Positions 4,551-37,339 of a DNA stretch of 64,000 nucleotides are shown one piece after another. How positions within the stretch are numbered: position 1 is the stretch's first letter; each line of letters begins with the position of its first letter. The DNA is from a virus. Made by a program: the position numbers and the translations under genes. The notes beneath the pieces were generated by a model. It saw only the letters and a list, made by a program, of their open reading frames with translations, was not told the origin of the DNA and made no database searches. The DNA lies in IMG/VR virus record IMGVR_UViG_3300046780_000088, positions 1 through 64,000 of that record; one strand, 5' to 3'.

Positions 4551-4625
4551 GCGGGTGTGCCTAGACTGGAATGGTACTGATTTCCAATCAGTTATACGAG
4601 AGTTCGATTCTCTTCGCCCGCTCCA
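4551..4625 (+). tRNA. tRNA-Gly(TCC)
   Basis: GCGGGTG/CGCCCGC acceptor, anticodon arm ACTGA-TTTCCAA-TCAGT, GTTCGA T-loop, TCCA end. Confidence 0.88.
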
Positions 4626-4631
4626 TTCAAT

Positions 4632-4724
4632 GCGGAATGACTACATCGTGTCAATGACGACAACAACGGTTGGTGCACGCTGTGTTGCTCGACTCAAATC
4701 ATCGCGTGTGATGATTCCGCTCCA
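4632..4724 (+). ncRNA. tRNA-like RNA with Gly-type acceptor stem but non-canonical body
   Basis: GCGGAAT/ATTCCGC 7-bp stem plus T-CCA end, located inside the tRNA cluster; no TTCRA T-loop and no canonical 7-nt anticodon loop. Confidence 0.55.
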
Positions 4725-4734
4725 ATTTATTTTT

Positions 4735-4811
4735 GCCCTTGTAGCTCAGTCGGCAGAGCAAGTGCTTTGTAAGCACTAGGTCGAAGGTTCGAATCCATTC
4801 CTCGGGCACCA
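4735..4811 (+). tRNA. tRNA-Thr(TGT)
   Basis: Anticodon arm AGTGC-TTTGTAA-GCACT, GGTTCGAATCC T-arm, ACCA end. Confidence 0.88.
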
Positions 4812-4840
4812 TTTCTTTTTTACAGCATCGATTCGTGTTT

Positions 4841-4923
4841 GCCCTGATGGTGGAATTGATAGACACACCGGGCCAAGAACCCGGCGCGCAAGCGTGAAGG
4901 TTTGAATCCTTCTTGGGGCACCA
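4841..4923 (+). tRNA. tRNA-Leu(AAG), long variable arm, C33
   Basis: GGTGGAATTGATAGACAC D-arm, anticodon arm CCGGG-CCAAGAA-CCCGG, variable arm CGC-GCAA-GCG, ACCA end. Confidence 0.8.
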
Positions 4924-4934
4924 GTTATTTATAC

Positions 4935-5008
4935 GGTATTGTAGCTCAGGGGCAGAGCAGCGGGTCGATAACCCGCCGACGAAGGTTCGATTCCTTACAG
5001 TACCACCA
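4935..5008 (+). tRNA. tRNA-Ile(GAT), C33
   Basis: Anticodon arm GCGGG-TCGATAA-CCCGC, GGTTCGATTCC T-arm, ACCA end. Confidence 0.85.
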
Positions 5009-7670: not shown

Positions 7671-8026
7671 TGTCCCTCTTTCAGAATTTTGATGGCGGCA
7701 TTTATGTCTTGCATCACGGCACTGCCAATGATACCGCGCCACTGTTTTAGATTTCTTATCACCGCTTGCTTCTTCTCAATCTTCTCTTCTGCTGCAACAA
7801 GCATGAAGGCTAAGAACATCAATCGAGCTTCATAGCCTTCTTTGTTATTGGGCCAAAAATAGACGAACCCATCTGAGCAAAGATACTTGCATTTGCCACC
7901 AAGCTTTACCAAGAATTTGTGAAACTGATCCCTGTTCGGCGCACCAAACTTTACCCAATAGCACATCCCCAATCGTGGATATGCATAAGCACGGTCGATT
8001 GCATCTAGGATTTGATTGCGATTCAT
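7667..8026 (-). CDS. Hypothetical protein
   Basis: ORF coupled to the nrdJ start. Confidence 0.5.
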   Translation of the reverse strand: MNRNQILDAIDRAYAYPRLGMCYWVKFGAPNRDQFHKFLVKLGGKCKYLCSDGFVYFWPNNKEGYEARLMFLAFMLVAAEEKIEKKQAVIRNLKQWRGIIGSAVMQDINAAIKILKEGQ

Positions 8027-8792: not shown

Positions 8793-11585
8793 TCATTGCA
8801 TCACCTTTATCTTGCTCGCTGTGAGCATGTTGAAACCGCTCTTCACCGTTCCCCGCACCATGAGCCACGCGCCGGGTTCGACCCCAATGTTAATCTGCAC
8901 TCCCAACCGCTGATAATCGAATCGACCTATCATCACCTTGAAGATGCCAGCATCGTCTTCTAACGTCAGCATCATATACTCCACGTCTTTCTTGAACGTC
9001 TTGCCGCCACGCTTCAATACTGCTTCGTACGAATTCATGTCGCGCAGTTCCTTCGTGATCAATTTTCCGATCACAACATACTCGCCCGGTTCCTTGCATT
9101 CGTTCGAGTGCGAAATCTTTCCATCGATCCCATGTGCGTCCGGGTGTTCGTACCAATCAGCGAACTTGGTCTTGGTCTGGAACACATCAGCGTAGAAGAT
9201 GTCAGGCTTCGCCAGCATTTCTTCTTGCTGCGGTGTCAGCTTGCCATCCTTGCGTGCGTCAATCAGCGCTTGTGCCTTTGATTGTCCAACGCCACGAATG
9301 CCCATCATGCCGCCATACAGCTTGCCGTCCTGCACGCTCCAATTCAACTGACTGCGCTCGCGGTCGAACGGAATGTATGTGTGACCTTCGCTCACCAGTT
9401 CGCGCAACAACGCGATGGTCTGTTCATCATCCTTTGCATTGCGCAAGCATCCGCAAGCGAACGCTACCGGGTGATAGACCTTGAGCCACGCGCACCAATA
9501 GCTGATGAGTGAGTAAGCAACAGCGTGCGACAGGTTGAATCCGTAGGAACCGAACGTGCGAATTTCATTCCATATCCTACGCGCGATTGCTTCTTCAACT
9601 CCGTTCTCTTTTGCACCGTCCCTGAATTGAATCCAGAATTGCTCCATGTATTCGTCGCCCATCGACTTACCCATCGCCTTACGAAGACGACTGACTTCGG
9701 GCCACGACATCTTACCGACTTCACGCGCTATCTGCATCACCTGTTCCTGATACACGATCACGCCATACGTTGACTTTGTGATCTTCTCAACCAGCGGATG
9801 TGCATAAATCGGTTTCTCCTGTCCGGTTCTGCGCAGCACGAACAGGCGAGTGCCACCACCATTCATAGGTCCGGGCCTACACAGCGAAGTCAACGCAACG
9901 ATGTCATCGAACTTGTCGCAACCCATTTCGTTTGTGACGTTCTGCAACGCGCTGCCCTCGAACTGAAACACACCAGCATACTTGCGCTGCTTGAACACGT
10001 CATACACTTTCGGATCATCAAGCGGAATTGAATTCAAATCTAGTGTTGCTTCAGGAACAGTAGGATCGAACGCTACAATATCTAACGTGTCGCTGATCAC
10101 AGAGAGCGTGCGCAGTCCAAGTGCATCGATCTTCAACAGGTTGATCTTCTCTGCATCCTTCTTGTCGATCTGTGCAACACCTTCGCTTGTGACCGTACAG
10201 TAATTGCTGATCGCCTTATTGCAGATGATGATGCCTGCCGCGTGCACACCAGCATGTCGCGCGTGCCCTTCGAGTTCAGTCGCCAGTGCAATACCCGGAT
10301 GCTTCGCCAGCACTGCCTTACCAGCATCGGTAGTTGTGAGCGTATCGGCAAGGCAACGCTCTGCGCCTTCGTCGTCGCTGTTGCGCTCGATCAGCACAGC
10401 TTTGACATCCTTGAAATCCCAAGGTGGGATGCCAAGCGCTTTGCCTACGTCGTTCAGAACCGACTTGGGTTGATACCGGCTGACAGTGGCGATATGTGCG
10501 ACACGATCATCGCCATATTTTTCTCGGAGATATTGTAAGACTGACTCGCGTGTAGTGTCGGGGAAGTCAAGATCGATGTCAGGCAAGTCAGTACGAGTAA
10601 CATCAACAAAACGTTCAAACAACAAACCAAAGCGCAAAGGATCAACATCAGTGATACCCAATAGATAGCAAACGAGTGAGCCTGCCGACGAACCGCGACC
10701 CGGACCAACGAGCATTGAGCGTTTCGCATGTTGAACCATGTCCGCAATGACGACGAAATAGTCTTCAAATTTCTTCTCCCTGATCACAGCAAGTTCGCGC
10801 ACCAATCGATCTTCATAATCCGGCGACCAACGATCCTTCAATCCGTTTTGGAATCTTGATCTGATACCAGCACGACACATTGCCTCAATGTCACCTTCAA
10901 CCTTGATGTTCGCCGCATGTGGCAACTCGACCGTGCAAAGCTTTGCGATGATGTCGGAATTTGTGTAAGCCTCATCAGGCAACATCGGCATGACGCGGCG
11001 CATATCGCGTTCGCTCATGATGTGTTCTGGTGTGAGTGCCGGTCGCGTGCCCATGAGTTCGTAGACTTCGCGGTGATCCCTCGTCGGGTATCGGTTGTCG
11101 GACGTTGCAACCAGTGGCAGATGCAAGCGCTCTGCCAACGCCATCTTCGCATTGATGGCGACAGCGCTGTGCGGGTTCACATCAAGGTAAACCTTCTTCA
11201 GCTTGCGCAAGAATCCTTCATCCAACACCATGCCGTTGAACATTACCAGATTGTCCGATATGGCAGCATCAAGAACGTTATCGTGTGTGAGCGATCCCTG
11301 CTTGTTGGCGAGCGACGAAAGACGATAGAGTTCGGCAAGACCATCGTTGTTCTTGGCGATGAAACTCATTTCCGGTTTGTGATCCTTGTTGCCGCCAACG
11401 ATCAGACGTACACCAAGCAGCGGTTTCTTTTTCTGCTTGACGCATTCGTTGAAGAATGCGACGTGACCGAACGTGTTGTTGTCGGCAATGCCGCACGCAT
11501 CGCCTTCGGCAGCGGCAACAACCTTTTCGATTGGGCCAAAGACCTTTTGGAATGTGTACTCAGTGCGGAGCAAAAGATTGATCAT
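8793..11585 (-). CDS. dnaE: DNA polymerase III alpha subunit (family C)
   Basis: PHP-like N-terminus, GPGRGSSAGSLVCYLLGITDVDP, PDIDLDF, HAAGII, LLKIDALGL, GVFQFE, VYQEQVM, YGFNLSHAVAYS. Confidence 0.95.
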   Translation of the reverse strand: MINLLLRTEYTFQKVFGPIEKVVAAAEGDACGIADNNTFGHVAFFNECVKQKKKPLLGVRLIVGGNKDHKPEMSFIAKNNDGLAELYRLSSLANKQGSLTHDNVLDAAISDNLVMFNGMVLDEGFLRKLKKVYLDVNPHSAVAINAKMALAERLHLPLVATSDNRYPTRDHREVYELMGTRPALTPEHIMSERDMRRVMPMLPDEAYTNSDIIAKLCTVELPHAANIKVEGDIEAMCRAGIRSRFQNGLKDRWSPDYEDRLVRELAVIREKKFEDYFVVIADMVQHAKRSMLVGPGRGSSAGSLVCYLLGITDVDPLRFGLLFERFVDVTRTDLPDIDLDFPDTTRESVLQYLREKYGDDRVAHIATVSRYQPKSVLNDVGKALGIPPWDFKDVKAVLIERNSDDEGAERCLADTLTTTDAGKAVLAKHPGIALATELEGHARHAGVHAAGIIICNKAISNYCTVTSEGVAQIDKKDAEKINLLKIDALGLRTLSVISDTLDIVAFDPTVPEATLDLNSIPLDDPKVYDVFKQRKYAGVFQFEGSALQNVTNEMGCDKFDDIVALTSLCRPGPMNGGGTRLFVLRRTGQEKPIYAHPLVEKITKSTYGVIVYQEQVMQIAREVGKMSWPEVSRLRKAMGKSMGDEYMEQFWIQFRDGAKENGVEEAIARRIWNEIRTFGSYGFNLSHAVAYSLISYWCAWLKVYHPVAFACGCLRNAKDDEQTIALLRELVSEGHTYIPFDRERSQLNWSVQDGKLYGGMMGIRGVGQSKAQALIDARKDGKLTPQQEEMLAKPDIFYADVFQTKTKFADWYEHPDAHGIDGKISHSNECKEPGEYVVIGKLITKELRDMNSYEAVLKRGGKTFKKDVEYMMLTLEDDAGIFKVMIGRFDYQRLGVQINIGVEPGAWLMVRGTVKSGFNMLTASKIKVMQ

Positions 11586-15395: not shown

Positions 15396-16217
15396 TTACG
15401 CAGTCACCGCAGTCTTCAGCGATTCCGCCAGTACCCACAGCGCACGGTTCAGGCGCACATCTTCGCTGACTGACTTCACAGCGCGAGTAGTGAGTCTGCG
15501 ACCAGTGGATGCAGTGCCACGTTGACCGCCTTGCAGAATGTTCTCCTGCACGCGGTTGAACGTTCTCCACAGATCGTTACCTTGGTCTTCTACACGACGT
15601 GCTTTCAGAAGAGCGTGCGGTTGAACCGGAGCCTCACCTTCTTTCCAACGCAACGCAACCGCTGCATTGGCGAAAGCTTGTTGTTGTTCCGGCAGCAGCG
15701 GCAATGCCTTCATCGCTTCGACGCGCTCCATCACGGCAGGCATTTCATCGATGATCTTATAGCTGCCTTCGATGACACGATCAACGATGTTGCCACTGTG
15801 ACGAACCCGGATCGATTCGAACGCGCTGTCGCAAACCATCAAACCATTCGCGCACAGGATACGGAAGATACCAGCATCCAGTTGATAACCGCTCGAACGA
15901 TCATGCGAATTGACCAGCGCGATCTGCGCGATTTCCGGTTGCTTGTTTTTCGCGTAGAACGAATGGCCCGGTGCGAAGAACTTCATGTCTTCTGCACGAC
16001 AGAACTTCAGCATGTGCTTTGTGAACTCGCCCTTACCTTCAATGCGAGCGCGCGACTGCACAGCGGACACCGGGAGAAAACCCTCTTCCCGCAAGCGCTC
16101 AACGACATTGATCGTCGGAATGAATTCGTAGCGCTCGCTGACTCCATCCCACGGTTCCGTTGCAAACACTGACGGCGCACGCTGACGGAGTTCGTCATTA
16201 CTCATAACTTGTAGCAT
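15396..16217 (-). CDS. DUF932/DUF945 family protein
   Basis: APSVFA, SERYEFIPT, FTKHML, NSHDRSSGYQLDAGIFRILCANGL, DLWRTFNRVQEN, LNRALW. Confidence 0.88.
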   Translation of the reverse strand: MLQVMSNDELRQRAPSVFATEPWDGVSERYEFIPTINVVERLREEGFLPVSAVQSRARIEGKGEFTKHMLKFCRAEDMKFFAPGHSFYAKNKQPEIAQIALVNSHDRSSGYQLDAGIFRILCANGLMVCDSAFESIRVRHSGNIVDRVIEGSYKIIDEMPAVMERVEAMKALPLLPEQQQAFANAAVALRWKEGEAPVQPHALLKARRVEDQGNDLWRTFNRVQENILQGGQRGTASTGRRLTTRAVKSVSEDVRLNRALWVLAESLKTAVTA

Positions 16218-16220
16218 GAT

Positions 16221-16475
16221 TCATATTCCTTTCTGTTGAGCCATTGTTTCGGCCAGATTGAACAGCGGACTACAATACGACGGAAGCTTTTCTTCGGAAC
16301 CATACTTGCGCTTCTCTTTGAGCAGATTCAGACACACTTCGAATTGCTGATGCTTGAATTGCGCTTTTGTTATCGGCGCAACTGGATGCGATGCTGGTAA
16401 CGCTGACACGATTGCTATGCCAAGCACGACGATGAATCCGCCGATGCCTGTGAGCAATTTGGTTTCTGGTTTCAT
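16221..16475 (-). CDS. Hypothetical membrane protein
   Basis: N-terminal TM; RBS AGAAAGG. Confidence 0.55.
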   Translation of the reverse strand: MKPETKLLTGIGGFIVVLGIAIVSALPASHPVAPITKAQFKHQQFEVCLNLLKEKRKYGSEEKLPSYCSPLFNLAETMAQQKGI

Positions 16476-16489
16476 AGCCGTACCTTTCT

Positions 16490-17220
16490 ATTCAATGGAA
16501 CTTCGGTTGTACTTCCAAGAAAGTGCTGATGACGAAGTATCTATCTATCATCGTCATGTCGTGCCACGCGATGAATGTTCCAACGCGCTCGAACAGGTAT
16601 CCAACATGCTCCTGTCGCATGTTGTGTGGAGTCGGACATTCACCATCGATGTTAGGTTGCATTGTGAGCCTTTTTCAATGGCGGGTTACTATTGTCCCGC
16701 AGCTATTGTCTAAGCGCCAGATCAAACGACTAAACACAACTGGAAGCCATAGCAGGTTCGTTGAATTCATTTAACCCGATACGAAGGATTGCTTACAGCA
16801 CGCTTTCGCGTTCTTTCCATCGTCAGATCGTCGGGCAAGTCCGCGACCATGTTCTCGAAGGTTCCTTATCATATCACCCATCAGTCACCTTCAACCCGTT
16901 GGTAAAATTCCAACTGACGATCTGTACTAGCTCGCCCATCCAAATTTCACATTTGCTCTGTAGTGCCAAAGCACATCAGAAGAGCGCGGCAGCGTGTCCG
17001 TTGTTGACACTGCTTGCTCTTCCGCTGAGTTTTGGTCAGCGCTTCATGATAATTTCTCCATCGGTTGACTTCTCACCGGGCAAATGGAATCAAATGCCGG
17101 GTCTTCCCATTTGAGTGTTGAAAAGTTGATTAGCCTTTGCCGATTTGTCTCCTGTAATATTTCATCTAGTTGTCGGACACCGGGCGATGTCCGACGCGCC
17201 GTTTTACCCGCTGGCGCTAC
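16490..17220 (-). ncRNA. Candidate large structured non-coding RNA
   Basis: About 730 nt with no convincing sense ORF in an otherwise gene-dense phage; many inverted repeats, e.g. CAGATCGTCGG/CTGACGATCTG, CAACATGC/GCATGTTG, GTCGGACAC/GTGTCCGAC-like. Confidence 0.4.
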
Positions 17221-17226
17221 GGTTGT

Positions 17227-17457
17227 TTATTCCAAGGCGGATGTGATCTTCGACGCTGTCTCTTCGAGTTCACTGGCAGCTTCTTCGAGTTCACTTGCGA
17301 CTTCATCTGCGCGACTGCCTTTGTCACCGGACTGCAAAGCTTCCGGCATGTTGTCGTAGTATTCGCGTTCGGCATCAGCTTCATCTTGCACGATGCTTTG
17401 CGCTTCTTCGACCAGTGCAGCGGCGCGGGTCAACGCTTCACGACGTTGCTTGTTCAT
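17227..17457 (-). CDS. Conserved small phage protein (MNKQRR...DNMPEALQSGDKG family)
   Basis: Recognisable recurrent phage family pattern. Confidence 0.7.
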   Translation of the reverse strand: MNKQRREALTRAAALVEEAQSIVQDEADAEREYYDNMPEALQSGDKGSRADEVASELEEAASELEETASKITSALE

Positions 17458-17731
17458 CTTCTTTCTCTCTGTTGGCAGCTACGATCTTAGCAAGCTTGGC
17501 AGCACTGACTTTGCGCGCCGGGATGGATACCGAACCACGCTCGCCATCCCTGAACAGAACTTCGTAAGGGACGACGTAGAAATCATGCATACCCTTGAGC
17601 CACACCTTGACCCCGCCACGCAACAGCGCGACTCTGATGGGCCTGCCCTTGTACTGGCTTGCTGTCTCTCGTTCGATCACCGTGTAACTGTTGGGGTCCG
17701 CACCTTTGGGTACTTCCCCGATCTTTATCAT
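17438..17731 (-). CDS. Hypothetical protein
   Basis: Start corrected to the ATG after RBS AGAAAGGA, downstream of a repeat element. Confidence 0.6.
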   Translation of the reverse strand: MIKIGEVPKGADPNSYTVIERETASQYKGRPIRVALLRGGVKVWLKGMHDFYVVPYEVLFRDGERGSVSIPARKVSAAKLAKIVAANREKEDEQATS

Positions 17732-17833
17732 TGGCGGTTTCCTTTCTATTCCCGGCAAAAGCACCGGAGCAAGCGCTTGGGGTTCTATTCCCGCTGCCCA
17801 AGCAAAAGACAAGCGCTTGCCTCGATACTCTGA

Positions 17834-17876
17834 GGGTTCCCCAAGGGTAGACAACACAATCAGGGAAAAGTTCCGT
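17834..17876 (-). promoter_or_regulatory. ECF-type promoter copy 2
   Basis: GGAACTT-N16-TCTAC-CCTTGGGGAACCC on the - strand. Confidence 0.7.
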
Positions 17877-18160
17877 TAAACTCCACCGCGTGATTCATCG
17901 CCGTCAAGTTCTTCCAATGCTAACGGGCGGCGCGTTTTGAATCCACCACCATTAGTACCGGCAAGAGTTCTGTGACCAGCGAAAAAACCAGCACCGTAGA
18001 AAAACGGATCACGTTCTTGTTGACGCGGTTCGTCGGCGATCAGATCGAGAAACTTTCTCGCCTGTGCCAGCGTCTTGACGGTTGTTTTCGCCAAGACCTT
18101 CGCCTTCGCACCGGAACCCGGATGAACATAACTGTACTTTGTGACTTCGATCTGGTTCAT
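17876..18160 (-). CDS. Hypothetical protein
   Basis: ORF in the early gene run. Confidence 0.55.
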   Translation of the reverse strand: MNQIEVTKYSYVHPGSGAKAKVLAKTTVKTLAQARKFLDLIADEPRQQERDPFFYGAGFFAGHRTLAGTNGGGFKTRRPLALEELDGDESRGGV

Positions 18161-18613
18161 TACTTGTTCCTTTCTTCTGCTTCGAACTGTCGGATGATTT
18201 CGTCGGCATCAAGATCGATGACCGCTTCAATCGGTTCTGCTTCGCGCGCTGCTTGTTCGGCAGCGTGTCTTGCCTTGATCACCTTGAACCGCGCCAACTG
18301 ATCAGGTGTGAGATACGTTTCCGGCGCGCGGTACTTCAGGTACTTTGCCCAACCTTGACTCATCATGATTTCCTTTCGAACTTCTCTTATCGATTGTACC
18401 AAAGAATATGCGTTGCCCATTTCGGCAATACAACATACGACTGTGACGGACGGATTCTACAATTCGAAACGCCAGTTTTTGTAGCAAGATCACCGAACCC
18501 ATCATAGTCAATAAAAGAACCACTACGAACAGCATCCTTCCATTCTTTTATCGTGAACAAATCTCCGTTACGCTTTTTGATTGGTTCGAGTTCTGGAACT
18601 TCTGTCGGGTATA

Positions 18614-18886
18614 TCATGGCAACACCCTTGTTAGTGCAGCACCGGCGATGGCAGCACATTTAGCGCGACGTGTCGCATCAGTTATGTTTTTGTCGTTCGT
18701 CGGACCTGTTGCTGCTGCCAACACATCTTGAAGTGCCTCGACCAGATCGTCGTATGCATTGTAGCGCTTGACGATCAGAGCAGCACGCTTTTGTATATCG
18801 CAAATATCGGTGAAGAGTTTTGCAATTGGAACTCCCTCTGTATCTTCAATCACTCGCTGTACCTGTTGACTAACTCGCAGTTTCAT
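18614..18886 (-). CDS. Hypothetical protein
   Basis: Start corrected to MKLRVSQ after RBS AGAAAGGA. Confidence 0.55.
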   Translation of the reverse strand: MKLRVSQQVQRVIEDTEGVPIAKLFTDICDIQKRAALIVKRYNAYDDLVEALQDVLAAATGPTNDKNITDATRRAKCAAIAGAALTRVLP

Positions 18887-18902
18887 GTGATTCCTTTCTA
18901 TG

Positions 18903-19057
18903 GTTGTGAGTACACCGTGCAGCGCGATTGAGTGAGGGGGCGTTGCCTTGTGCCTACGCTTGTAGGAAGCGGCCACAGGTCTGCATGTCTCTAATCCGTC
19001 GCGGCACCCTTTGGAAGTGACGTAACGTTTATCGCGCTGCACGCTGCACTCGCAGCG
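18903..19057. ncRNA. Stem-closed non-coding domain
   Basis: Intergenic; long closing helix GTTGTGAGT..CGTGCAGCGCGAT / ATCGCGCTGCACG..ACTCGCAGC enclosing ~100 nt. Confidence 0.55.
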
Positions 19058-19066
19058 TTGAAGCAA

Positions 19067-19369
19067 TTACAGACTGCCAAGCGCACGCGGTTCGAAGTGC
19101 ATGTCACGCTCGATCTTCAAACCGAACGGCCCGCGAATCGATTCGAGTTCACGCAAACTGAAATAACCGAGTTCAGTTTCGTGACCTTCGACGCGACCGA
19201 AGAACATTATCTCACCGTCTTCTTGTACATGCCCCTCGACACCGTACCATGTCCAGTTCGACCACGGTGTGAAGAACTTCACGACCGCAACCTTGTCGCC
19301 TTCCGGGATGTGTTCAGTTGCATTCAGTGCCGGAAGCTTACGCAGAATTTCTTTGGTGATCAGTTTCAT
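19067..19369 (-). CDS. DUF2958 family protein
   Basis: VKFFTPWSNWTWY, ELGYFSLRELE, GLKIERDMHF. Confidence 0.85.
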   Translation of the reverse strand: MKLITKEILRKLPALNATEHIPEGDKVAVVKFFTPWSNWTWYGVEGHVQEDGEIMFFGRVEGHETELGYFSLRELESIRGPFGLKIERDMHFEPRALGSL

Positions 19370-19578
19370 TTGTGATTCCTTTCTGCTGTTAATTCTTCGA
19401 TTCGTTTTTGCTGCCACGTTATTGCTTCAACCGCATTCTCTTGCGTTATCGGATTGTAACGTGCTGCAACTTCCGCTCTAACCTGTTTCAATATCTGGTT
19501 GTGAGCAATGCGTTCGGCAATTTGTTCCTTCGTGTCTGCTGGCGGTGACACCAACATATAATGCCGTTTGCTGTACAT
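19366..19578 (-). CDS. Hypothetical early protein
   Basis: Follows a repeat element and RBS. Confidence 0.55.
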   Translation of the reverse strand: MYSKRHYMLVSPPADTKEQIAERIAHNQILKQVRAEVAARYNPITQENAVEAITWQQKRIEELTAERNHK

Positions 19579-19638
19579 TATATTTCCTTTCTCACCCGGC
19601 AAAGCACCGGAGCATCCGTTGTCGGATGCCTCGTAGCT

Positions 19639-19944
19639 CTACTGAAGACGTTCCTCAATCCTCATAACACTTGCAGTATACCAAAGACCACCTTGGCTTA
19701 CTGGACGATCATGTTCCATGATAATACCGCTGATATTTACGCGACACCATACGCGACCTTTCTTGCTCAGATGCGGAGCTATCGGCTTCGAACAGCAATG
19801 CCAACCGGGTCGAACTTTGAATCCGTTTGTTGGATGCGATTGAGCAAAATAGCACGAACCTACTTCGAGTCGTTGACCGCGATTGATGAATAGTGAACCG
19901 AGTGAACCATCAGGGCGCACGCGAAAAAGCTTGTAAGCTTGCAT
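19639..19944 (-). CDS. Conserved phage hypothetical protein
   Basis: AYKLFR..DGSLGSLFIN...HPT.GF..RPGWHC...P.APHL...R.W pattern. Confidence 0.65.
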   Translation of the reverse strand: MQAYKLFRVRPDGSLGSLFINRGQRLEVGSCYFAQSHPTNGFKVRPGWHCCSKPIAPHLSKKGRVWCRVNISGIIMEHDRPVSQGGLWYTASVMRIEERLQ

Positions 19945-20002
19945 GAATTTCTCCTAGCCGACTAAAGTGTCGGAGCAAGGCCCGAAGCCTTGCCTCGAAA
20001 CT

Positions 20003-20500
20003 CTACTTGCGAACCGTGCCCAACTTCGTAAGCGTTTCTTGGTACGCCAGCGCTTCAGCACGTTGCGCATTCTTTACTTCTTTGCTGAACCCTGCACGCG
20101 CCAGTGTGTCAGGACCACCAACAAACGATTGACCGTTGATGGTGCTATTAACTCCATCAGGATCATGTTCATTGTGTGACTTAACACCTTTCCCGGCGAC
20201 ACCAACAAGCTCAATCTCGCCAGTATCACGCACCTTGATTTCTGTGATGGTGCAAAAGAAAGTCGGCATCGAAAAACTGCCAGCAGTAAATCCTTCGCTA
20301 AGGATCAAGTCGCCAACCTTGAAATCAGCGTAGCGACGTTTGCGGAGCGAATCCAGATACGTCTGTGCTGCCCTTCCACGCTTTGTAAGAACAGCGCCCT
20401 TCCCTTCACACTTGAAACAGACACCGTTGTAAACAGCATACGGCATACGTCCTGAACCACCACAACGCGAGCAACGGACGTTTTCAAAGAGCAGACCCAT
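20003..20500 (-). CDS. Zn-finger (CxRCGGxG...CFxCxG) hypothetical protein
   Basis: CSRCGGSG...GVCFKCEG motif. Confidence 0.65.
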   Translation of the reverse strand: MGLLFENVRCSRCGGSGRMPYAVYNGVCFKCEGKGAVLTKRGRAAQTYLDSLRKRRYADFKVGDLILSEGFTAGSFSMPTFFCTITEIKVRDTGEIELVGVAGKGVKSHNEHDPDGVNSTINGQSFVGGPDTLARAGFSKEVKNAQRAEALAYQETLTKLGTVRK

Positions 20501-20555
20501 GATGTTCCCTTTCTAGCCGACGAAAGTGTCGGAGAATAGGCGCGGTGATCTGCGC

Positions 20556-20753
20556 TCATTCCTCGATGCTCTCAACTTTTGCTTGTAATTTCGCTGCGCG
20601 ACGAACTGCTGCTTGCTGCTCATAGCGAGCATGAAATTCACAGCGCGAACCCCAAAAATTTGCACATACTGCTGGCTTACCGCATGACGAAACATACGAT
20701 GCCATACCCGCTCCGTTACGACGACGACGTGGAAACGTACAAAACGGACCCAT
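20556..20753 (-). CDS. Small Cys/His hypothetical protein
   Basis: Between two repeat elements, with RBS. Confidence 0.5.
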   Translation of the reverse strand: MGPFCTFPRRRRNGAGMASYVSSCGKPAVCANFWGSRCEFHARYEQQAAVRRAAKLQAKVESIEE

Positions 20754-20813
20754 GATGTTCCCTTTCTAGCCGACGAAAGTGTCGGAGCAAGGTCGAAACC
20801 TTGCCTCGAAACT

Positions 20814-21017
20814 CTAATCATCAAACTCATCGTAAGGTATTTCATCGCTCTTCTGAGCGCTGAAAATGATGCGACCAAGATGTCCGTTGTCAGCATGTTG
20901 TCTACGCGCTCTCTTGATTGCTTCTGACTTTGACTTCGCACGGACAACATACTGGTATCCTTCACGTTCATCCCATGCCGGAAAAACTGGCATTGCAAGA
21001 ACTGTGTAAGTTTCCAT
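20814..21017 (-). CDS. Hypothetical early protein
   Basis: Between two repeat elements, with RBS. Confidence 0.55.
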   Translation of the reverse strand: METYTVLAMPVFPAWDEREGYQYVVRAKSKSEAIKRARRQHADNGHLGRIIFSAQKSDEIPYDEFDD

Positions 21018-21122
21018 TGCTTACCTTTCTGTGCCGACAAAAACGTCGGAGCAAGCAGCGCTGCTTGCCTCGAAGTTCTCAGTCTTCGACAAACCGGGTA
21101 GCGGTGTTCACCGTTCGGTCTG

Positions 21123-21818
21123 TTACGCTTGGATGGATGCTTGACGAATCAACCGCACCGGGTATCCATATTCCTTACCGTTCCTTTCGAACACGATATG
21201 CGGAACATACTTACCATTCAGGTGCGGTCCAAAACTACGAACAACGCGCTCTTCAACGCGCAATACTGTTACGTCGTATCCGTCTTTGCCGTACAGATGC
21301 ACGACAGTACCCGGAACGATTACACGCTTGCTTTCTTCGCTACGCTCTTGCAACTGCTGCTTACCGTGCACGCGATCAGCGTTTGTGGTGATGGCCTTCG
21401 ACGTATTACGCGCCAAAATCGCACGGTTAAGAAGATTAAGACGTAAATCTCTTACCGCTTCCCGCTGATGTTCTGCTGGAGCCTCAGCGTATGCAACCAT
21501 CACTCGTTCAGTCCTAGCAAATCTCTTACCTTCCGGGATGAACTTTCTGTATTCGCCGTTCCACGCACGCGACGGAAGAATAAAACCATCCAATACCGCC
21601 TCCGCATCTTTGTCATGATTGCGAGCGTTGACCAGCAATTCGGCAGCGATTTGATCCGCGAATGTGCGGTCAAGTTCCAACGGTTGATGACGTTCGCCGC
21701 AGCACACGCCGTTGAAGTAACCGTGATCGACGGTGTAACCGTGCTTCGACAGAACTTTGGATGGCAGCGCTTGAAGCGAGCCACATATCTGACACGTTCC
21801 ACTGTGAGTCGATTTCAT
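21123..21818 (-). CDS. Hypothetical protein with N-terminal Zn-binding motif
   Basis: GTCQICG...HGY....F.G.C motif; start corrected to the ATG after the RBS. Confidence 0.65.
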   Translation of the reverse strand: MKSTHSGTCQICGSLQALPSKVLSKHGYTVDHGYFNGVCCGERHQPLELDRTFADQIAAELLVNARNHDKDAEAVLDGFILPSRAWNGEYRKFIPEGKRFARTERVMVAYAEAPAEHQREAVRDLRLNLLNRAILARNTSKAITTNADRVHGKQQLQERSEESKRVIVPGTVVHLYGKDGYDVTVLRVEERVVRSFGPHLNGKYVPHIVFERNGKEYGYPVRLIRQASIQA

Positions 21819-21877
21819 TTGATTCCTTTCTGTCCGACTAAAGTGTCGGAGCAAGGCCGAAGCCTTGCCTCGAAACT

Positions 21878-22150
21878 CTACACTGTCTTACTCGCCAACT
21901 CGCGCACCAACATACGCGCTGTTACTTTCGCCATATGCGCGCGGGGTCCGTCACTCTTACGAGGATCAAGCACGCCAGTTTCGTACAGTCTGTTCAGTAC
22001 CTTGGTAACGAAGAATAACGCATCGCTATCGTTGGTGTTGAACGGGTCTTTCGGAGCAGTTGCGTTGACGATCTTAAACGGTACGCGCGGATCGTTGACG
22101 ATCTGACCAGCGGGGTGTTCGACATTCTTGTGTGCGGGAACATGGAACAT
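21878..22150 (-). CDS. Hypothetical early protein
   Basis: Between two repeat elements; start corrected. Confidence 0.55.
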   Translation of the reverse strand: MFHVPAHKNVEHPAGQIVNDPRVPFKIVNATAPKDPFNTNDSDALFFVTKVLNRLYETGVLDPRKSDGPRAHMAKVTARMLVRELASKTV

Positions 22151-22209
22151 GGTAATCCTTTCTGTCCGACGAAAGTGTCGGAGCAACCGTTGTCGGTTGC
22201 CTCGAAACT

Positions 22210-22395
22210 CTATCGCGCGTTTAGCGCGTTACACACATCTTCAACATCCTTCTTATTAACCTTTTGTTGTTCTTCATAACCCTTCATACCAAGGACGCTA
22301 GTACGTTGCTCGCGCCCACACAATTTCATTTCAACAACTCTTCCATCATCCAATGTGAATTGAATGATGGTTCCAAATTTGGTTTCAATCTTCAT
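22210..22395 (-). CDS. Hypothetical early protein
   Basis: First ORF after the non-coding leader; RBS AGAAAGG. Confidence 0.55.
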   Translation of the reverse strand: MKIETKFGTIIQFTLDDGRVVEMKLCGREQRTSVLGMKGYEEQQKVNKKDVEDVCNALNAR

Positions 22396-22414
22396 GATAA
22401 CCTTTCTGTTGTTA

Positions 22415-23375
22415 AAAGACGATGGGGATGCAAGCTCGATTCGTCATCGTCTTGCTGCGCCCATCGGTAGAACGTACTGATGAATCCATCCACCCGGTGT
22501 ACACTATCCCGCCTAACCTTAATTTCACAGGTGGTATCTGTCGGATCGAATGGATGAACTCATCAGTACGCACTACGATAGCGTCACGCTGTTTGGAGCA
22601 GCACAGTTTTGCGCTTCATGCATGATCTGATCGACGCTATCGTAGTACGCACTGAGCAACACTGTATTGCGACATCACGACCGATATGCCATCCACGAAA
22701 CCGACTCGCTATCCAGATGCATCATGTCAATGCATAACAACGATTAGGTTTGTGTCATGTAGCTATCCAGCTATCGTGATGAAAATATACAGTGTTGCTC
22801 GGTACGCACTGCGCAACATTCAAGTGTGATCTTATCTCAGCCTGCCCTGACGGAATGGTCAGAAGCGCTTTTCGCGCACCCTGAAAATGTTTGACCGTGT
22901 ACCGTAACTCGCCCGACCAATTCAGATGCAAGAACTTGAATGCTGCGCACTGCGCACTGTGCAACACACTGGAATCGGAATCAAAGCGTTGGCCGGTTTC
23001 CAGTTTTTCAATCCCAACGCTACAGAGGGAAATAATTCACTTTTCACCGTTAGACTTTGATCATGTCTTGTGTGTTGCACACTGCGCAGTTACCGCAGTG
23101 TTGAAAAGAGCAATGCTTCGCCCTTTCCCTTTCCGTCCGGGTGCCGGTTGTCTTCGGGTTTCGTTGCGAGTCGTCTGACTTCGTGCTATCGGTTTTTAGC
23201 TTGTTGGCGGTTGCCTGTTGCCTGAACCCGCCACTCTGATTCTGCTTGGCAGACACCGATGGTGCCTACCTACCGAAGCGACTCTGCTACCCTAGTGAGC
23301 CTGCTTCCCTTGCTACTCGGTTCTCAGTGCCCGGTGGACCCGACTGGTTGGCATCCACTGAACTTCAAGTACCGT
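22415..23375 (-). ncRNA. ~1 kb structured non-coding leader: tandem array of stem-closed domains
   Basis: Six consecutive inverted-repeat-closed units, four junctions joined by (G/C)T(A/G)CGCAC linkers, plus a nested-helix region at 23110-23370; downstream of a strong sigma70 promoter. Confidence 0.7.
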
Positions 23376-23381
23376 GATTGA

Positions 23382-23409
23382 AGTATAGTCCAACCACAGA
23401 CCATGTCAA
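23382..23409 (-). promoter_or_regulatory. Strong sigma70 promoter (probable early promoter)
   Basis: TTGACA-N16-TATACT on the - strand with an upstream A-tract. Confidence 0.75.
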
Positions 23410-23454
23410 GCACTTTCTGAACTATTTTTATGCTCTGTAAGCCCTTGATTCCAT

Positions 23455-25380
23455 TTAAAAATTCTCCGCATGGTAGCGACCATCAGGGCTAAGTGTGACC
23501 CTGCCTGCTTCGATCAGCGCGTATACCGAGCGGTCGAATCGCTTGCGCCGTGCATCAAGCAGCTTCGTGCGCTCTTCACCATCAGGCACTAGGTTGATCG
23601 CATAGTAGCGTTCGCGCCATGCATCGAGTGTTACTCCTTTGCCTTCGTCGCCTAACGTCTGCAATGCCATGTCATCGAATGCTGATAGCGGTTTGATTTT
23701 CTTTCGCTCGACAGGAACATAGTCAGGCGGTTTCGGTTTGACGATGCACGATCCAATCGTTTCATCAGGATCAGCATCCGGGTCCGGTGATTTGCCGAGT
23801 CCGATGTATTCAAGATCGTACGAAAATGATTGTCCTGTTTCTCCATCGCGCACCTTGGACACTTCAGCAGTCCGCGCACCATCTTCTTCTGTTCGCACTT
23901 GCAACTCGAAGTCCGCAGCAGCGCGCAACGAACTGTGACCGCGCGATCCTTTGCTTTCATCCTTGCCGCTATGGTGCACATAGACGACTGTGCAACCGCA
24001 CGCATCGCGTATCGCCTTGCCTGCCATCACCATCATGCCCATGTCAATCGAACTATTCTCATCGCCACCCGGCATCATCGCGTTCAGCGTATCAAGCACG
24101 ACCAGCACGACACCGTGCAACTCTTCCGACTTTTGCTTCACGTCTTCGACCAGTGCTGCAACGTCTGTTCCTTTCTGATCGCACAGGTTCAAGTTCGTTT
24201 GCAGGATACGGAAGTTCGGATAGTCATCGGCGGATGTATTGTTGTGACCGACCATGTACGCACGCAAGCGATACGTCAGGTTGCCTTCGCTTGTGACGTA
24301 GATAACACCGCCCGGTTTGATTCGACGCTCGAACCAACGCAGCTTGCCTTCCTTCTGCGCAAGCAGCATCGCAAGGTCCGTTGCAAGAAACGTCTTCGAG
24401 CTACCCGGCTGACCATAGATGACTCCGATGTCGCCAAGCTGCGCAACACCGCGCACCAACCAACGAGGCGGTTGTCGATCAAGAAACTCCGACAACGTTT
24501 GTGACTTGACTACGCGCGGTACACCTTTCCATTCGAACCCTGCTTCGTATGCCCACTTGAAGATCGTGCCAACTGTGACCGGCTTGCGACCTGTCTTCTT
24601 GCGCGCATGGTAGAAGTCTAGCGTCTGTTTCTCGTTGAAGTTCCCCGCTCGACGCGCGAAGTCCAACGCAAGTTGCTCGCCGACTTCGTCATGTCCGAAC
24701 GCATTCCCAATCGCATACGTTATCCGCATCCATGAATCGCGGTCTTCCGCTTTTGCAGGATCAAGAAATTCCAGTGCAGCTTTCAGCTTTTCGAATGAAC
24801 CCGGCTTGTTACGATTCCATTGTTCTTCTTCGTCATCGTCGGATTCAACCGTAGCACCTTTCTTTCTCAGCTTGACTTCGACTTCTTCATTGATCGGTGC
24901 GAACGGTGCATCATCCGCGACATCTGTGATCGCGCGCCCGGTGAAGGTGACGTACTTCTTATCGGTGAAGACATCGATACCGATACCATCGCCGATGTCC
25001 CTGTTGTCGGGCAGCGAAGATTTTCCACTCACAAACGCATGGACACCGTGACCTGACGGACTCCATTCAACGTACGTCGCCCCAAGACCTTTGATGATGT
25101 CGGCAGCGCGATCCTTCAGCGTCCCTTCAGCATCGGTTGCCTTGTCGAAGTCGTAGACTGTTACGCCGAGTTCAGGCAACAAAGCTAACCCGATTCCTGT
25201 AAAGGATTTCGGGTTTTTATCGAGTCTTTCTTTTGCTACGTCGAACGATACTAACTCAGCACGATCACTCGCATCACCATTCTCACCGCGTCTTGGTTCA
25301 CCATTCGTTGCGTAGAACGGTTGCTTTGTAGCGTTATGCAGTAACCATACTGGCAGCTTTTTGAGTTCTGTGAGATTCAT
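23455..25380 (-). CDS. Primase-helicase fusion (primase/polymerase + PriCT-2 + AAA_25/RepA-like helicase)
   Basis: DFD and EWSPSGHGVH primase motifs; RDSWMRI...VTVGTIF (PriCT-2); GQPGSSKT Walker A variant, VLDTL, HHSGKD..KGSRGHSSL. Confidence 0.88.
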   Translation of the reverse strand: MNLTELKKLPVWLLHNATKQPFYATNGEPRRGENGDASDRAELVSFDVAKERLDKNPKSFTGIGLALLPELGVTVYDFDKATDAEGTLKDRAADIIKGLGATYVEWSPSGHGVHAFVSGKSSLPDNRDIGDGIGIDVFTDKKYVTFTGRAITDVADDAPFAPINEEVEVKLRKKGATVESDDDEEEQWNRNKPGSFEKLKAALEFLDPAKAEDRDSWMRITYAIGNAFGHDEVGEQLALDFARRAGNFNEKQTLDFYHARKKTGRKPVTVGTIFKWAYEAGFEWKGVPRVVKSQTLSEFLDRQPPRWLVRGVAQLGDIGVIYGQPGSSKTFLATDLAMLLAQKEGKLRWFERRIKPGGVIYVTSEGNLTYRLRAYMVGHNNTSADDYPNFRILQTNLNLCDQKGTDVAALVEDVKQKSEELHGVVLVVLDTLNAMMPGGDENSSIDMGMMVMAGKAIRDACGCTVVYVHHSGKDESKGSRGHSSLRAAADFELQVRTEEDGARTAEVSKVRDGETGQSFSYDLEYIGLGKSPDPDADPDETIGSCIVKPKPPDYVPVERKKIKPLSAFDDMALQTLGDEGKGVTLDAWRERYYAINLVPDGEERTKLLDARRKRFDRSVYALIEAGRVTLSPDGRYHAENF

Positions 25381-25399
25381 TCTTTCGCCCAAAGAGAAA

Positions 25400-34257: not shown

Positions 34258-34331
34258 TGGCGGGACGTAAGGGATTCGAACCCATATCTGACGGATAGAC
34301 AATCCGTTGCATCCCGATCTGCCAACGCCCC
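34258..34331 (-). tRNA. tRNA-Asp(GTC)
   Basis: Anticodon arm ACGGA-TTGTCTA-TCCGT, GGTTCGAATCC T-arm, G73-CCA. Confidence 0.85.
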
Positions 34332-34409
34332 AAAATAAAATCGCTCGGTACAGGCATCACTGTATCTGGCCCCGAGCTTGCATCGTCTTTGTGACGATGG
34401 ATGCAGCGA

Positions 34410-34484
34410 TGGTAGCGGGTGTGCGATTCGAACGCACGATCTTCAGGTTATGGGCCTGACGAGTTACCACTTCTCCAACCCGCA
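34410..34484 (-). tRNA. tRNA-Met(CAT), initiator-like, C33
   Basis: 1:72 mismatch (U/U), anticodon arm TCAGG-CCCATAA-CCTGA, GTTCGAATC T-loop, ACCA. Confidence 0.82.
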
Positions 34485-34624
34485 TTCGATTCCTTCGGCG
34501 GTTAAATCCCCGGATCGGGGGTCCGCCGTCGCCGACCCAAGACGCTTTAGCGACTCGCGCCGGGGAGTCCATGTGTTGCAACACATTCGCTCCTAAGCTT
34601 TCTTCCGGTTCCGCACAGCACAGG

Positions 34625-34955
34625 TTATGTGCTTTCGGTTCTGTTGCCACGCTCACCGGATCGCGCCGCGTATTGTTGGACCGATTAGGCCGCGATACGC
34701 TGGTCGTACATTTCGTCATTCGCAGTTATGCGCTGGCTCAGTTATTACGCGACTGTGCGCGTGTTGTCATCGTCTGCTATCTCGCCACGTCGAAACCTGT
34801 GCGACCCCGCCGCGCGACACTTTGTTACCCGCATATTATTGCGCCCAACATTCACGGATGAACTATGGGAAAATGCCGCTCGGTGGAGTCGTCGGGAATT
34901 GAACCCGAGTCCGCAACGCCTTCACTTCCGAGTCTGCGGTCTTAATCACCGCCAC
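34625..34955 (-). ncRNA. ssrA: Circularly permuted two-piece tmRNA; tag (A)ANDEMYDQRIAA
   Basis: Acceptor piece with T-arm GGGTTCAATTCCC and 3' CGACTCC-A ending ~34884, then a ~73-nt intervening segment, then the coding piece starting GGGGTCG..GGTTTCGACG at 34808; G3-U70 pair; ATAACT before the resume codon; tag ORF 34723-34685; outer ends approximate. Confidence 0.88.
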
Positions 34956-34975
34956 AACAATTCTTCGAACGACAA

Positions 34976-35883: not shown

Positions 35884-36270
35884 TCATGACGCTACCACCA
35901 ATCCAAATTCCCTCATTGACGCTCGAACATTCACCCAACCATCGAAGCGTTCGAGCAATCGAGCGTACAGCGCACAGAAATTGCCATGATGACCCACCTG
36001 TCCCAATGCATGTGTGAGTTCATGTAACGTATACCAAGGCGACCGAAAACATTCTGGCAGATAGATTAAATGATACTTGTCATTATAGAATCCGGCACCG
36101 CCAACTGTTCGAGTAGTTCTGACTTTCGGTGCTGATCCTTTCGCACGCATATTGCTCCACACGTTTCTCGCCAAATCATTACACTCTGTGAGCGAAAGAT
36201 ATGGACATTGCATTCCTACCAATACACACCCTTCCCATGCGTAGAGCTTTGCCCGTTGGAAATCTCTCAT
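35884..36270 (-). CDS. Small zincin-like metallopeptidase domain protein
   Basis: RDFQRAKLYAWE N-terminus, LHELTH...H.G.F motif. Confidence 0.7.
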   Translation of the reverse strand: MRDFQRAKLYAWEGCVLVGMQCPYLSLTECNDLARNVWSNMRAKGSAPKVRTTRTVGGAGFYNDKYHLIYLPECFRSPWYTLHELTHALGQVGHHGNFCALYARLLERFDGWVNVRASMREFGLVVAS

Positions 36271-36869
36271 TCTACTTTCCCTTTCGGAACTTCATCGTTC
36301 TTTATCGTCTTCTTGAATCCGATGTTTGCCGCGTGATGCCATATCACGATGCCTTCAGGGTTCATGAATCCGGGCGCTGCTTTACTGCCATGTTGTTCGA
36401 GTTCAGCTAACGACATTCGAACCCAATCAGTTGTGAATGGACCTTGATACACGACCGGCACAACGTCGCAACATGCAGGACGTACATCCTGCCATCTGTG
36501 AGTATTGAACAGCGCGAAGCGCCTGTGATCGAGTCCGTATCCGCGTTGAATACCGCGCCCATACCACTCGCCAAAGTGTGAGCCATGTCCAAGGTCTGCC
36601 AATTCTGCCGCGTGATTAGCAACCCAAAGAGCAAACCCAAAGTTGTCGTCTTGCGTACCAATCCATCGCGTGCGCGATCCTGCACGAATGAAATGTGTGA
36701 CGCCATCAATCAACACTTGATTGTCGTACTTGATGTCGTATGCCTCGTCACCTGACACTAGCAACCGTGAATCTCGAATGCTTACTTGCGCATTCGTGCC
36801 ATCGATCTTTTCTGTGATCGTACAGTCACGCGACAGTCGCGGCATCTTGGGAAACTCAACGAATTCCAT
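36267..36869 (-). CDS. ATP-dependent RNA ligase (Rnl2-like nucleotidyltransferase)
   Basis: TEKIDGTNA motif I, GSRTR, FGEWYG.GIQ, EGIV. Confidence 0.85.
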   Translation of the reverse strand: MEFVEFPKMPRLSRDCTITEKIDGTNAQVSIRDSRLLVSGDEAYDIKYDNQVLIDGVTHFIRAGSRTRWIGTQDDNFGFALWVANHAAELADLGHGSHFGEWYGRGIQRGYGLDHRRFALFNTHRWQDVRPACCDVVPVVYQGPFTTDWVRMSLAELEQHGSKAAPGFMNPEGIVIWHHAANIGFKKTIKNDEVPKGKVE

Positions 36870-37339
36870 TCTTTCTCCTATCACGTTTTGTGAGTACAGC
36901 AAACATTTCGTTGCATACGTCAGTACCGTGTTCCTTTTCGAACTTCGCTATATCGCACCGAGCTTCAATACGATCCATTTGCCTCAATGACGACAGTTTG
37001 TTTGTGAGTCTGTCAAACCTATCAAGCATTGATCTGGTATAGCTCATTGTAATGTCTCTCCCCCACGTTGAATGTCTCCTGCTTGGCACTTCAACAACTC
37101 GTACGTTGAATCTTTGCCGACGAAACCCCACTTGATACCAGCGCACCCTTGCTCGGTAGCACGCGCAAATCCAAGCAGGATTAGTGAGCCACCATTCGTC
37201 GCCAGCGTCAATTGATAACCTGACGGCAGTGCAACGAGTGAGCAAAACTTAGCGCGAGGGTCAATCGGTTGCGGCAGCAAATCCAGTATGCCTTCTGTTG
37301 CATTCTCAATCTCAATCAACCATCCTTCAATCATTTCCT

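Follow-up and report, generated by a model that had tools for sequence, protein, structure and literature searches.

Tandem stem-closed units in a soil virus genome

RNases of the RNase III type, which are specific for double strands, cut helices of about two turns, and in phage T7 the processing hairpins R0.3–R1.3 of the early polycistronic RNA are located between genes, one per junction. The attC sites of integrons are imperfect hairpins of 57–141 nucleotides (nt) with R''/R' boxes (RYYYAAC ... GTTRRRY) and L boxes carrying extrahelical bases. REP/BIME clusters and miniature inverted-repeat transposable elements (MITEs), such as the Correia elements, form multi-copy families with a conserved hairpin sequence, and iteron origins next to primase-helicase genes are known from P4 (ori/crr) and the staphylococcal islands (SaPI ori). 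According to the passages cited here, the PeSL cassettes of T4-type phages are promoter and stem-loop units that flank genes (PMC2839356, PMC4122927), and the 'stem-loop arrays' of the TIGR systems (Tas/Nop-domain) consist of tandem units with variable palindromic closing sequences and a variable intervening sequence (PMC12045711). The DNA analyzed here (the window, 64,000 nt) comprised bases 1–64000 of the 86,782-base IMG/VR virus record IMGVR_UViG_3300046780_000088, which came from soil and had an estimated completeness of 84%. An array of five consecutive stem-closed units, named U2–U6, was found at 22473–23081 of the window, within a 1,059-nt intergenic gap (22396–23454).

An earlier sequence-only reading had listed six inverted repeats in this gap. 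All six were present at the listed coordinates, with perfect cores of 9, 11, 14, 14, 15-of-16 and 12 base pairs (bp) from U1 to U6. The interiors of U2–U6 were 47–119 nt long, and the helices including the linkers spanned 21–40 positions with 78–95% complementarity. A genome-wide count of perfect inverted repeats (at least 11 bp, loops of 20–200 nt) gave 11, and 20 dinucleotide shuffles had a mean of 4.8; 22473–23081 contained four of the 11, where ~0.04 were expected. A chance origin of the inverted repeats of the array was excluded.

The units were joined by a short linker, which the same reading had correctly described as a junction repeated three times and followed by variants. Exact copies of GTACGCACT occurred three times in the 86,782-base genome, all in the array, and were absent from the other strand; CTGCGCACT occurred twice (22943 and 22950) and CTGCGCAGT once (23082), also in the array. 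All copies had the same orientation, and their spacings were irregular (79, 157, 148, 7, and 132 nt). The linker is a near-palindrome, which becomes perfect with G.U pairs on the minus-strand RNA (RNA form AGUGCGUAC), and each stem can therefore be extended into both flanking linker copies.

The stems and loops had been described as unrelated to one another. This was the case for the interiors, which could not be aligned with one another and were not significantly structured on either strand (z -2.5 to +0.6), and for the stems of U2 and U3, which were wholly different. It did not apply to the stems of U4, U5, and U6. These three units were paralogs: on the minus strand they ended in TGTTGC-N-CAGTGCG(T/C)A and started with the complementary GCA(A/G)CA, so that ~6 extra bases inside the linker (TGTTGC/GCAACA) were shared. 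This indicated that part of their stems was a conserved junction-centred palindrome and may have arisen as a by-product of repeating it. The repeated palindrome was 26 nt long, and one degenerate pattern fitted two junctions. The module-specific complementarity cannot arise from a repeated junction palindrome. Past the shared six bases, the stems of U4–U6 were unrelated yet complementary, for 5, 6, and 2 bp, respectively. Pairing in the three units was also kept despite changes on both sides: the linker-adjacent pair was A-T, C-G, and T-A, and another pair was C-G, T-A, and C-G.

U1, which had been taken as the first of six linked units, lacked the junction linker, folded better on the plus strand (z -3.62 versus -1.79 on the minus strand), and had a 9-bp stem that was not predicted on the minus strand (pair probability 0.0). 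It was thus not counted in the unit series, and the linked units were U2–U6. On minus-strand RNA, the U1 region (22416–22465) preferred an alternative hairpin, GAUGGG...CCCAUC with GCAAG/CUUGC.

The array was non-coding. All eight open reading frames (ORFs) of 36–94 codons in the array had negative codon-usage scores (-0.03 to -0.23), and the scores of all 11 neighbouring small genes were positive (+0.07 to +0.39). Small proteins in the array were ruled out on this basis, in agreement with the initial impression that no ORF was credible. The other ORF-free tract, at 16200–17500, did not have the architecture of the array.

Strand preference and turnover of the modules

All genes flanking the array were on the minus strand. 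The near-consensus sigma70 promoter that the sequence-only reading had placed ahead of the array (TTGACA-N16-TATACT, 11 of 12 matches, ~290 nt upstream) was found, and no other site in the 86.8-kb genome reached 11 matches. As a correction, the promoter and the genes were on the minus strand, and the array is therefore read from right to left. Shuffled genomes gave a mean of 0.8 such sites, so the support from this promoter comes entirely from its place and orientation. The order on the minus strand was promoter, ~290 nt of purine-rich sequence, U6, U5, U4, U3, U2, the U1 region, AGAAAGG, and ATG. The 5′ part of this presumed leader (23092–23375) was weakly structured (z +0.88 on the plus strand), had no Rfam match, and was distinct from the array.

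Folding favoured the same strand. The minimum free energy of the whole gap was -416.2 kcal/mol on the minus strand versus -361.7 kcal/mol on the plus strand, and the z scores of U2–U6 against dinucleotide shuffles were -5.5 to -8.0 on the minus strand and -3.6 to -6.2 on the plus strand. Tandem closed domains thus folded far better than shuffles and best on the minus strand. In the ensemble of the predicted minus-strand transcript, the closing stems of U2, U4, U5, and U6 had mean pair probabilities above 0.9, and that of U3 was lower (Table 1); the U5 stem was not formed on the plus strand (0.005), and the minus strand was the only one on which all five stems formed. Among the non-Watson-Crick helix positions, 11 were A.C on the plus strand (G.U on the minus strand; five of them in U2) versus four that were G.T on the plus strand. 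This asymmetry was suggestive of minus-strand RNA.

Three public sequencing runs (X1, X2, and X3) contained words of the stretch, and no RNA run was listed among them. Run X1 contained the whole stretch and was not counted as independent, as the record may derive from it. Run X2 held two 151-nt contigs, identical to 22079–22229 and 23309–23459, and was uninformative for the uncovered part between them. Run X3, a soil metagenome from another study, contained a 491-nt contig (depth 3.8) that matched 22401–22475 and 22572–22653 with 0 differences. This contig kept U1 and U3 letter for letter and skipped exactly 96 nt (22476–22571), which corresponded to U2 plus one linker; the joint was ambiguous by 3 letters, and the ends of the deletion shared ACT (3 nt) or ACG(T/C)ACT (6/7). 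Two parts of the contig were unlike the window, namely 180 nt past the linker end at 22653 and 154 nt to the left of 22401, where the divergence on the coding strand started directly behind the ribosome site; neither divergent flank occurred in the window. The sequence past the linker started with NNN-CAACAT, the start motif of U4–U6, which indicated that another member of this family occupied the place of U4.

Compared with the window, the X3 relative had thus lost or gained one unit, had another unit replaced, and carried a different spacer and first gene. The breakpoints of this mosaic were at the linker and exactly at the ribosome site. The units thus behave as modules. The U2 insertion or deletion can be explained without an enzyme, by slippage across the hairpin between short direct repeats. 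By analogy with the PeSL cassettes, short-homology recombination at shared motifs may explain the replacements of the unit and the gene.

The array was known from one genome and one short contig. Its nucleotide sequence had no blastn match among GenBank phages and plasmids. Exact and degenerate DNA patterns in IMG/VR revealed no array and gave 8 + 8 matches in sequence that looked protein-coding and had no hairpins, and in JGI metagenome contigs and GTDB genomes the pattern and DNA searches found either nothing or chance matches in coding sequence. Searches with the neighbouring proteins were also negative. The combination of primase-helicase and gp34-like proteins led to one IMG/VR locus, L010, which had no array. 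The best tblastn match of the primase-helicase was 28.4%, and the region in phage GB2A had no comparable gap; the best non-self homologue was 46% identical across 53% of the query. The 243-aa protein encoded downstream of the array had homologues on a 1,235-nt contig (83% identity) and on a 65-kb contig (60%). An alignment of its homologues led to 73 IMG/VR loci (up to 47% identity), of which none had a cluster of at least 3 long-range repeats per kb and none had the array. Over the protein-anchored loci together (1 + 1 + 73), neither a comparable gap nor a cluster of long-range repeats was found. The earlier reading had called for a test of whether loops vary and junctions persist in relatives; the X3 contig, where the modules varied and the linker was kept, gave an outcome of this kind, and no full array was found elsewhere. 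Within the literature searches made here, nothing described such an array.

Two other inverted-repeat features were observed in the distant relative L020 (also L023), whose homologue of the 243-aa protein was 47% identical. One was a 20-bp perfect inverted repeat with a 74-nt AT-rich loop, and the other was an 11-bp inverted repeat spanning the ribosome sites of two divergent genes (L020 coordinates 2090–2203 and 9861–9988 for the two features).

Loops of 47–119 nt make the extrusion of cruciforms in duplex DNA unlikely, and the hairpins would therefore need a single strand. The strand of the genes, the promoter, the better fold, and the common orientation of the linkers suggested that this single strand is a transcript. 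We tentatively favour, at slightly less than an even chance, the explanation that the hairpin modules are transcribed as one array within an early leader, with probable cutting in the ~20-bp stems. The array would form the middle part of an untranslated leader of ~980 nt, transcribed on the minus strand and starting at the sigma70-like promoter, and a block of small genes of an early (or middle) operon would follow the leader. Five RNA modules, from U6 to U2, would each be closed by a module-specific helix, which the linker lengthens to ~18–25 bp. The predicted minus-strand helices reach the double-stranded length of ~20 bp or more expected of an RNase III site, and from their two turns we infer that cleavage by an RNase III-type enzyme in or next to the closing stems is the most likely fate. 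The products of such cleavage would be stem-capped RNAs and an mRNA freed of its leader. Slippage at the repeated linker, or recombination there through short homology, would account for the gain, loss, and replacement of modules between related phages. Within this explanation, roughly half of the weight may be given to trans-acting products, as proposed in the sequence-only reading, and roughly half to a cis role in the stability of the leader or the control of expression.

Several observations weighed against a transcribed and processed array. The covariation came from three paralogs and one partial contig, and there were no orthologous arrays; near-perfect Watson-Crick stems would also be expected of young DNA palindromes. 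The G.U asymmetry was modest (one-sided binomial ~0.06), with six of the 11 positions inside repeated linker copies, and the minus strand was G-richer, so that its shuffles also folded better. About one near-consensus promoter per genome is what the shuffles give, and the sigma70 consensus may not be that of the host. The linker with TGTTGC/GCAACA is the type of palindrome used by dimeric DNA-binding proteins, and the array directly follows a primase-helicase gene. No RNase III gene was present in the 86.8 kb of phage sequence, so that cutting would depend on the host. Neither a terminator nor an obvious stable 3′ end for trans-acting RNAs was seen at the array. The complementarity of the interiors to the rest of the phage was at the chance level (11 matches of 12–13 nt versus ~11 expected), and an antisense action on the phage's own genes was rejected, as no match went beyond chance.

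A bolder version, which we consider rather unlikely, is that the locus represents a new class of phage RNA locus, namely a cassette array of self-closing unique RNAs on a short oriented linker. The linker might then act both as an RNA processing or recognition signal and as the DNA site of cassette exchange between phages. Such an array would be the RNA counterpart of the fast-turnover early islands of anti-defence genes, and the released RNAs would serve as decoys or guides against host systems. The tmRNA, the eight tRNAs, RtcB, and the second RNA ligase encoded by the phage would be in keeping with a counter-defence role. Should the array be transcribed and cut, it would follow that phages can keep whole libraries of unrelated small RNAs, all in one format of closed stem and linker, and reshuffle them like gene cassettes; the modular evolution of early accessory regions would extend from proteins to RNA. 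In metagenomes, such loci could then be recognised by a simple signature, namely unrelated long-range stems in tandem with an oriented 9-mer between them.

Comparison with known systems and alternative explanations

The TIGR stem-loop arrays, as far as the cited passages describe them, are the closest published architecture, and the present array fails on a defining feature of theirs. Both have tandem units in phage DNA with variable palindromic closing stems and a variable intervening sequence, and the TIGR precursor is cut into single stem-loops. However, the array had no ordered box C/D motifs, no Nop-domain protein was found, the units were much larger, and a conserved oriented 9-mer linker was present. 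We thus regard a guide-RNA array of the TIGR stem-loop type, or of another RNA-guided system, as highly improbable, in spite of this resemblance (PMC12045711). An ordered series of box C ... D' ... C' ... D was found in none of the five units on either strand. The Nop domain (PF01798) had no match at E <= 1 in the 86.8 kb, a result limited by the divergence of Tas proteins and by the 84% completeness of the record. The neighbouring 243-aa protein, downstream of the array, belonged to an uncharacterised viral family and had no Nop-like neighbour, and units of 75–153 nt stand against TIGR units with 8–12-nt spacers. The UGAUGA strings in U2 and U4 were Watson-Crick paired inside stems. The CUGAUGA string in U2 was also considered as part of a hammerhead or box C/D motif; this was rejected, as the string was paired in this way and had no partner motifs.

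The RNase III hairpins of T7 are likewise long non-coding hairpins with helices of about two turns on an early transcript of the host polymerase, which is predicted here. They differ from the array, where five tandem hairpins in a leader enclose 47–119 nt, the linker is repeated, and the cleavage is putative. In the PeSL cassettes, so far as the cited passages go, short conserved non-coding motifs are also the sites at which modules are inserted, deleted, and replaced among close relatives; here the modules are non-coding hairpins and the shared motif is just 9–16 nt long.

The attC sites resemble the array in their unrelated sequences, imperfect hairpins, strand-specific folding, and cassette-like gain and loss. 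However, the R-box consensus was absent in U2 and U3, and in U4–U6 only AAC/GTT triplets were found, 5–7 nt inside the units. GCAAC/GTTGC was present in U4–U6, but GTTGC(T/G/A)C does not fit the attC consensus GTTRRRY. The stems were continuous without bulged bases, there were no genes between the sites, and the breakpoints were at the linker and not at G/TT. Membership in attC was rejected on the missing or ill-fitting R boxes and on the lack of a match to PF00589 (IntI-type tyrosine recombinase) in the genome (84% complete).

The array was not CRISPR-like, as had been stated before. CRISPR arrays have near-identical repeats of ~23–50 nt and unique spacers that are similar in length. The best family of direct repeats had 3 copies of 26 nt with 69–77% identity, spaced 157 and 148 nt apart, and the 'spacers' were 70–150 nt long and self-complementary at their ends. 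The annotated neighbours were replication and RNA-repair genes (no search was aimed at cas genes). The earlier remark that the element was not recognised also held: Rfam 15 gave nine matches in the window (eight tRNAs and one permuted tmRNA), none of them in 22150–23550, and at E <= 10 the array region had just a chance match to mir-2329 (20.7 bits versus a gathering score of 90). ARAGORN found no tRNA in the array, and tRNA-like units were rejected. No TROVE/Ro60, RNase III, reverse transcriptase, Nop domain, integrase, resolvase, or Y1 transposase was found in the 86.8 kb. Overall, the interpretation given in the sequence-only reading was partly supported.

The main rival of a transcript is a role at the DNA level in replication, which we regard as unlikely. 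The gap would be a phage origin or primase-loading zone with the linkers as iteron-like sites, and the repeats would fold as single-strand hairpins once the duplex is opened, maybe aided by transcription starting at the nearby promoter. The array adjoins the PriCT_2 + AAA_25 primase-helicase gene inside a replication and recombination module and, like iteron origins, has repeated short motifs in a non-coding stretch by a replication gene (5–7 copies of an oriented quasi-palindromic motif). G.T pairs in single-stranded DNA would yield the same strand bias. Unlike iteron origins, it had no AT-rich unwinding stretch (the lowest GC content of 80-nt windows in the array was 0.375), the spacing of the linkers was irregular, and the long inverted repeats were module-specific. 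DnaA-box-like sites numbered 11 in the window versus 11.8 expected, with none in the array, and the GC skew did not turn here. Among the origin signals, CCATCCAC occurred twice, which was not significant. One unit was dispensable and another was replaced in the near-identical X3 relative, and the Caulobacter phage GB2A, with a similar primase-helicase, had no such region. If the array is an origin after all, it is an unusual one, built of dispensable hairpin modules; under either explanation, the array has no counterpart among catalogued elements.

Selfish or neutral palindromic insertions would be an alternative for which we see little likelihood. MITE-like or hairpin DNA would have entered a palindromic hot-spot, with the linker as the duplicated target, and would be tolerated in the leader without a function. 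A whole unit was present in one relative and absent in another, each unit had terminal inverted repeats and was flanked by the same 9-mer, the interiors were random-like, and there was no conservation elsewhere. REP/BIME elements and MITEs are likewise palindromic units of 75–155 nt located outside coding sequence, and some form tandems with linker motifs, but every unit here was unique and single-copy. The termini differed per unit, so that several unrelated mobilising enzymes with the same target would be needed. No unit had another copy in the genome (the longest outside match was 13 nt), a 22-mer of U2 was absent from 185,579 species genomes (GTDB), and the plasmids searched had no match. 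With every unit single-copy and no gene of the transposase type found in the 86.8 kb, an element derived from a MITE or an insertion sequence was rejected. The X3 contig has the form of an empty site for U2, but its ends shared just ACT or ACG(T/C)ACT, and slippage between the 6-of-7 direct repeats that flank the hairpin explains the U2 difference equally well. The strand-biased G.U pairs and the compensatory changes suggest selection on pairing.

An operator array is improbable. In this case the junction palindrome (TGTTGC-N14/16-GCAACA) would bind a dimeric phage regulator that controls or blocks early-promoter transcription, with the stems in part a by-product of the repeated palindrome. 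The sites are downstream of the promoter, and the fit of one 26-nt palindromic pattern to two junctions is consistent with such sites. However, the module-specific complementarity ran 5–13 bp past the shared motif in U2–U5, U2 and U3 lacked the TGTTGC/GCAACA part, and the linker copies were all asymmetric and co-oriented. The insertion and operator explanations account for parts of the array, and not for its module-specific, strand-biased, and compensated pairing.

Genomic setting and neighbouring features

According to the gene calls of the window, the genes from ~5 kb to ~48 kb were on the minus strand. Upstream of the array on this strand, an exonuclease gene and genes similar to gp33 and gp34 of Pam3 were found, which placed the array within a replication and recombination module. 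The C-terminal 94 residues of the primase-helicase had no informative match in the PDB. Farther off, the phage encoded DNA polymerase III alpha, a class II ribonucleotide reductase, RtcB, a second RNA ligase, a permuted tmRNA, and eight tRNAs. The features are listed in Table 1.

Table 1. Features of the hairpin array and its surroundings (window positions; helix lengths and pair probabilities are predictions for the minus-strand transcript).
Feature	Position	Strand	Stem arms (paired positions)	Helix (pairs)	z, minus strand	Pair probability	Remarks
RNA-repair and translation genes (RtcB, RNA ligase, permuted tmRNA, tRNAs)	40072–41256 (-), 36267–36902 (-), 34594–34973 (-), 4368–5008 (+), 34258–34484 (-), 52507–52584 (+)
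DNA polymerase III alpha-type replicase; class II ribonucleotide reductase	8793–11585 (-); 5769–7742 (-)
Intergenic element before seven small genes	17817–22212	minus					copies end at 17832, 19641, 20005, 20816, 21080, 21880, 22212
First downstream gene, 61 codons (61 aa)	22210–22395	minus					opens the run of small genes
Ribosome site AGAAAGG and ATG of the 61-aa gene	22393–22407	minus					X3 contig diverges right after the ribosome site
U1	22416–22453	unassigned	22416–22424/22445–22453 (9/9)		-1.79	0.0	9-bp hairpin by the ribosome site; kept in X3
Degenerate linker GAACGTACT, left of U2	22470–22478	plus					with 22568–22574, the 6-of-7 direct repeat bounding the U2 deletion
U2	22473–22570	minus	22473–22483/22560–22570 (11/11)	~24–25	-6.41	0.999	11-bp perfect stem, lengthened by G.U pairs
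Linker GTACGCACT, copy 1	22566–22574	plus
U3	22572–22646	minus	22572–22585/22633–22646 (14/14)	14–18	-5.98	0.60	14-bp perfect stem; interior 47 nt; identical in X3
Linker GTACGCACT, copy 2	22645–22653	plus					X3 contig diverges exactly past its end
U4	22651–22803	minus	22651–22667/22787–22803 (16/17, one G.T)	23	-8.03	0.99	14-bp perfect stem and inner 8-bp stem; interior 119 nt
Linker GTACGCACT, copy 3	22802–22810	plus
U5	22810–22949	minus	22810–22825/22934–22949 (15/16, one A.C)	16–22	-5.46	0.93	16-position stem, A.C on plus (G.U on minus); interior 108 nt
Double linker CTGCGCACT-GCGCACT, between U5 and U6	22943–22958	plus
U6	22949–23091	minus	22958–22969/23070–23081 (12/12)	20–21	-6.02	0.999	12-bp perfect stem; 21 positions with one mismatch through the linker copies; interior ~100 nt
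5′ part of the presumed leader	23092–23375	minus			-1.86		purine-rich
Sigma70-like promoter	23382–23409	minus
Primase-helicase gene	23455–25392	minus					PriCT_2 + AAA_25 domains; borders the gap

The RNA-repair and translation genes comprised RtcB (E = 1.5e-128), an RNA ligase (PF09414), a permuted tmRNA with the tag ANDEMYDQRIAA, and eight tRNAs. This set suggests a conflict with RNA-cleaving defences of the host. The replicase was of the DNA polymerase III alpha type, and the class II ribonucleotide reductase was B12-dependent.

A conserved intergenic element was observed before seven small genes downstream of the array. Each copy contained, in order, an overlap with the preceding stop codon, hairpin 1, hairpin 2 (CCGAC...GTCGG), AGAAAGG/AGGAG, and ATG. 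The stem of hairpin 1 varied with compensation, and an identical 16-mer was present in four of the copies (7 matches versus 0.49 expected).

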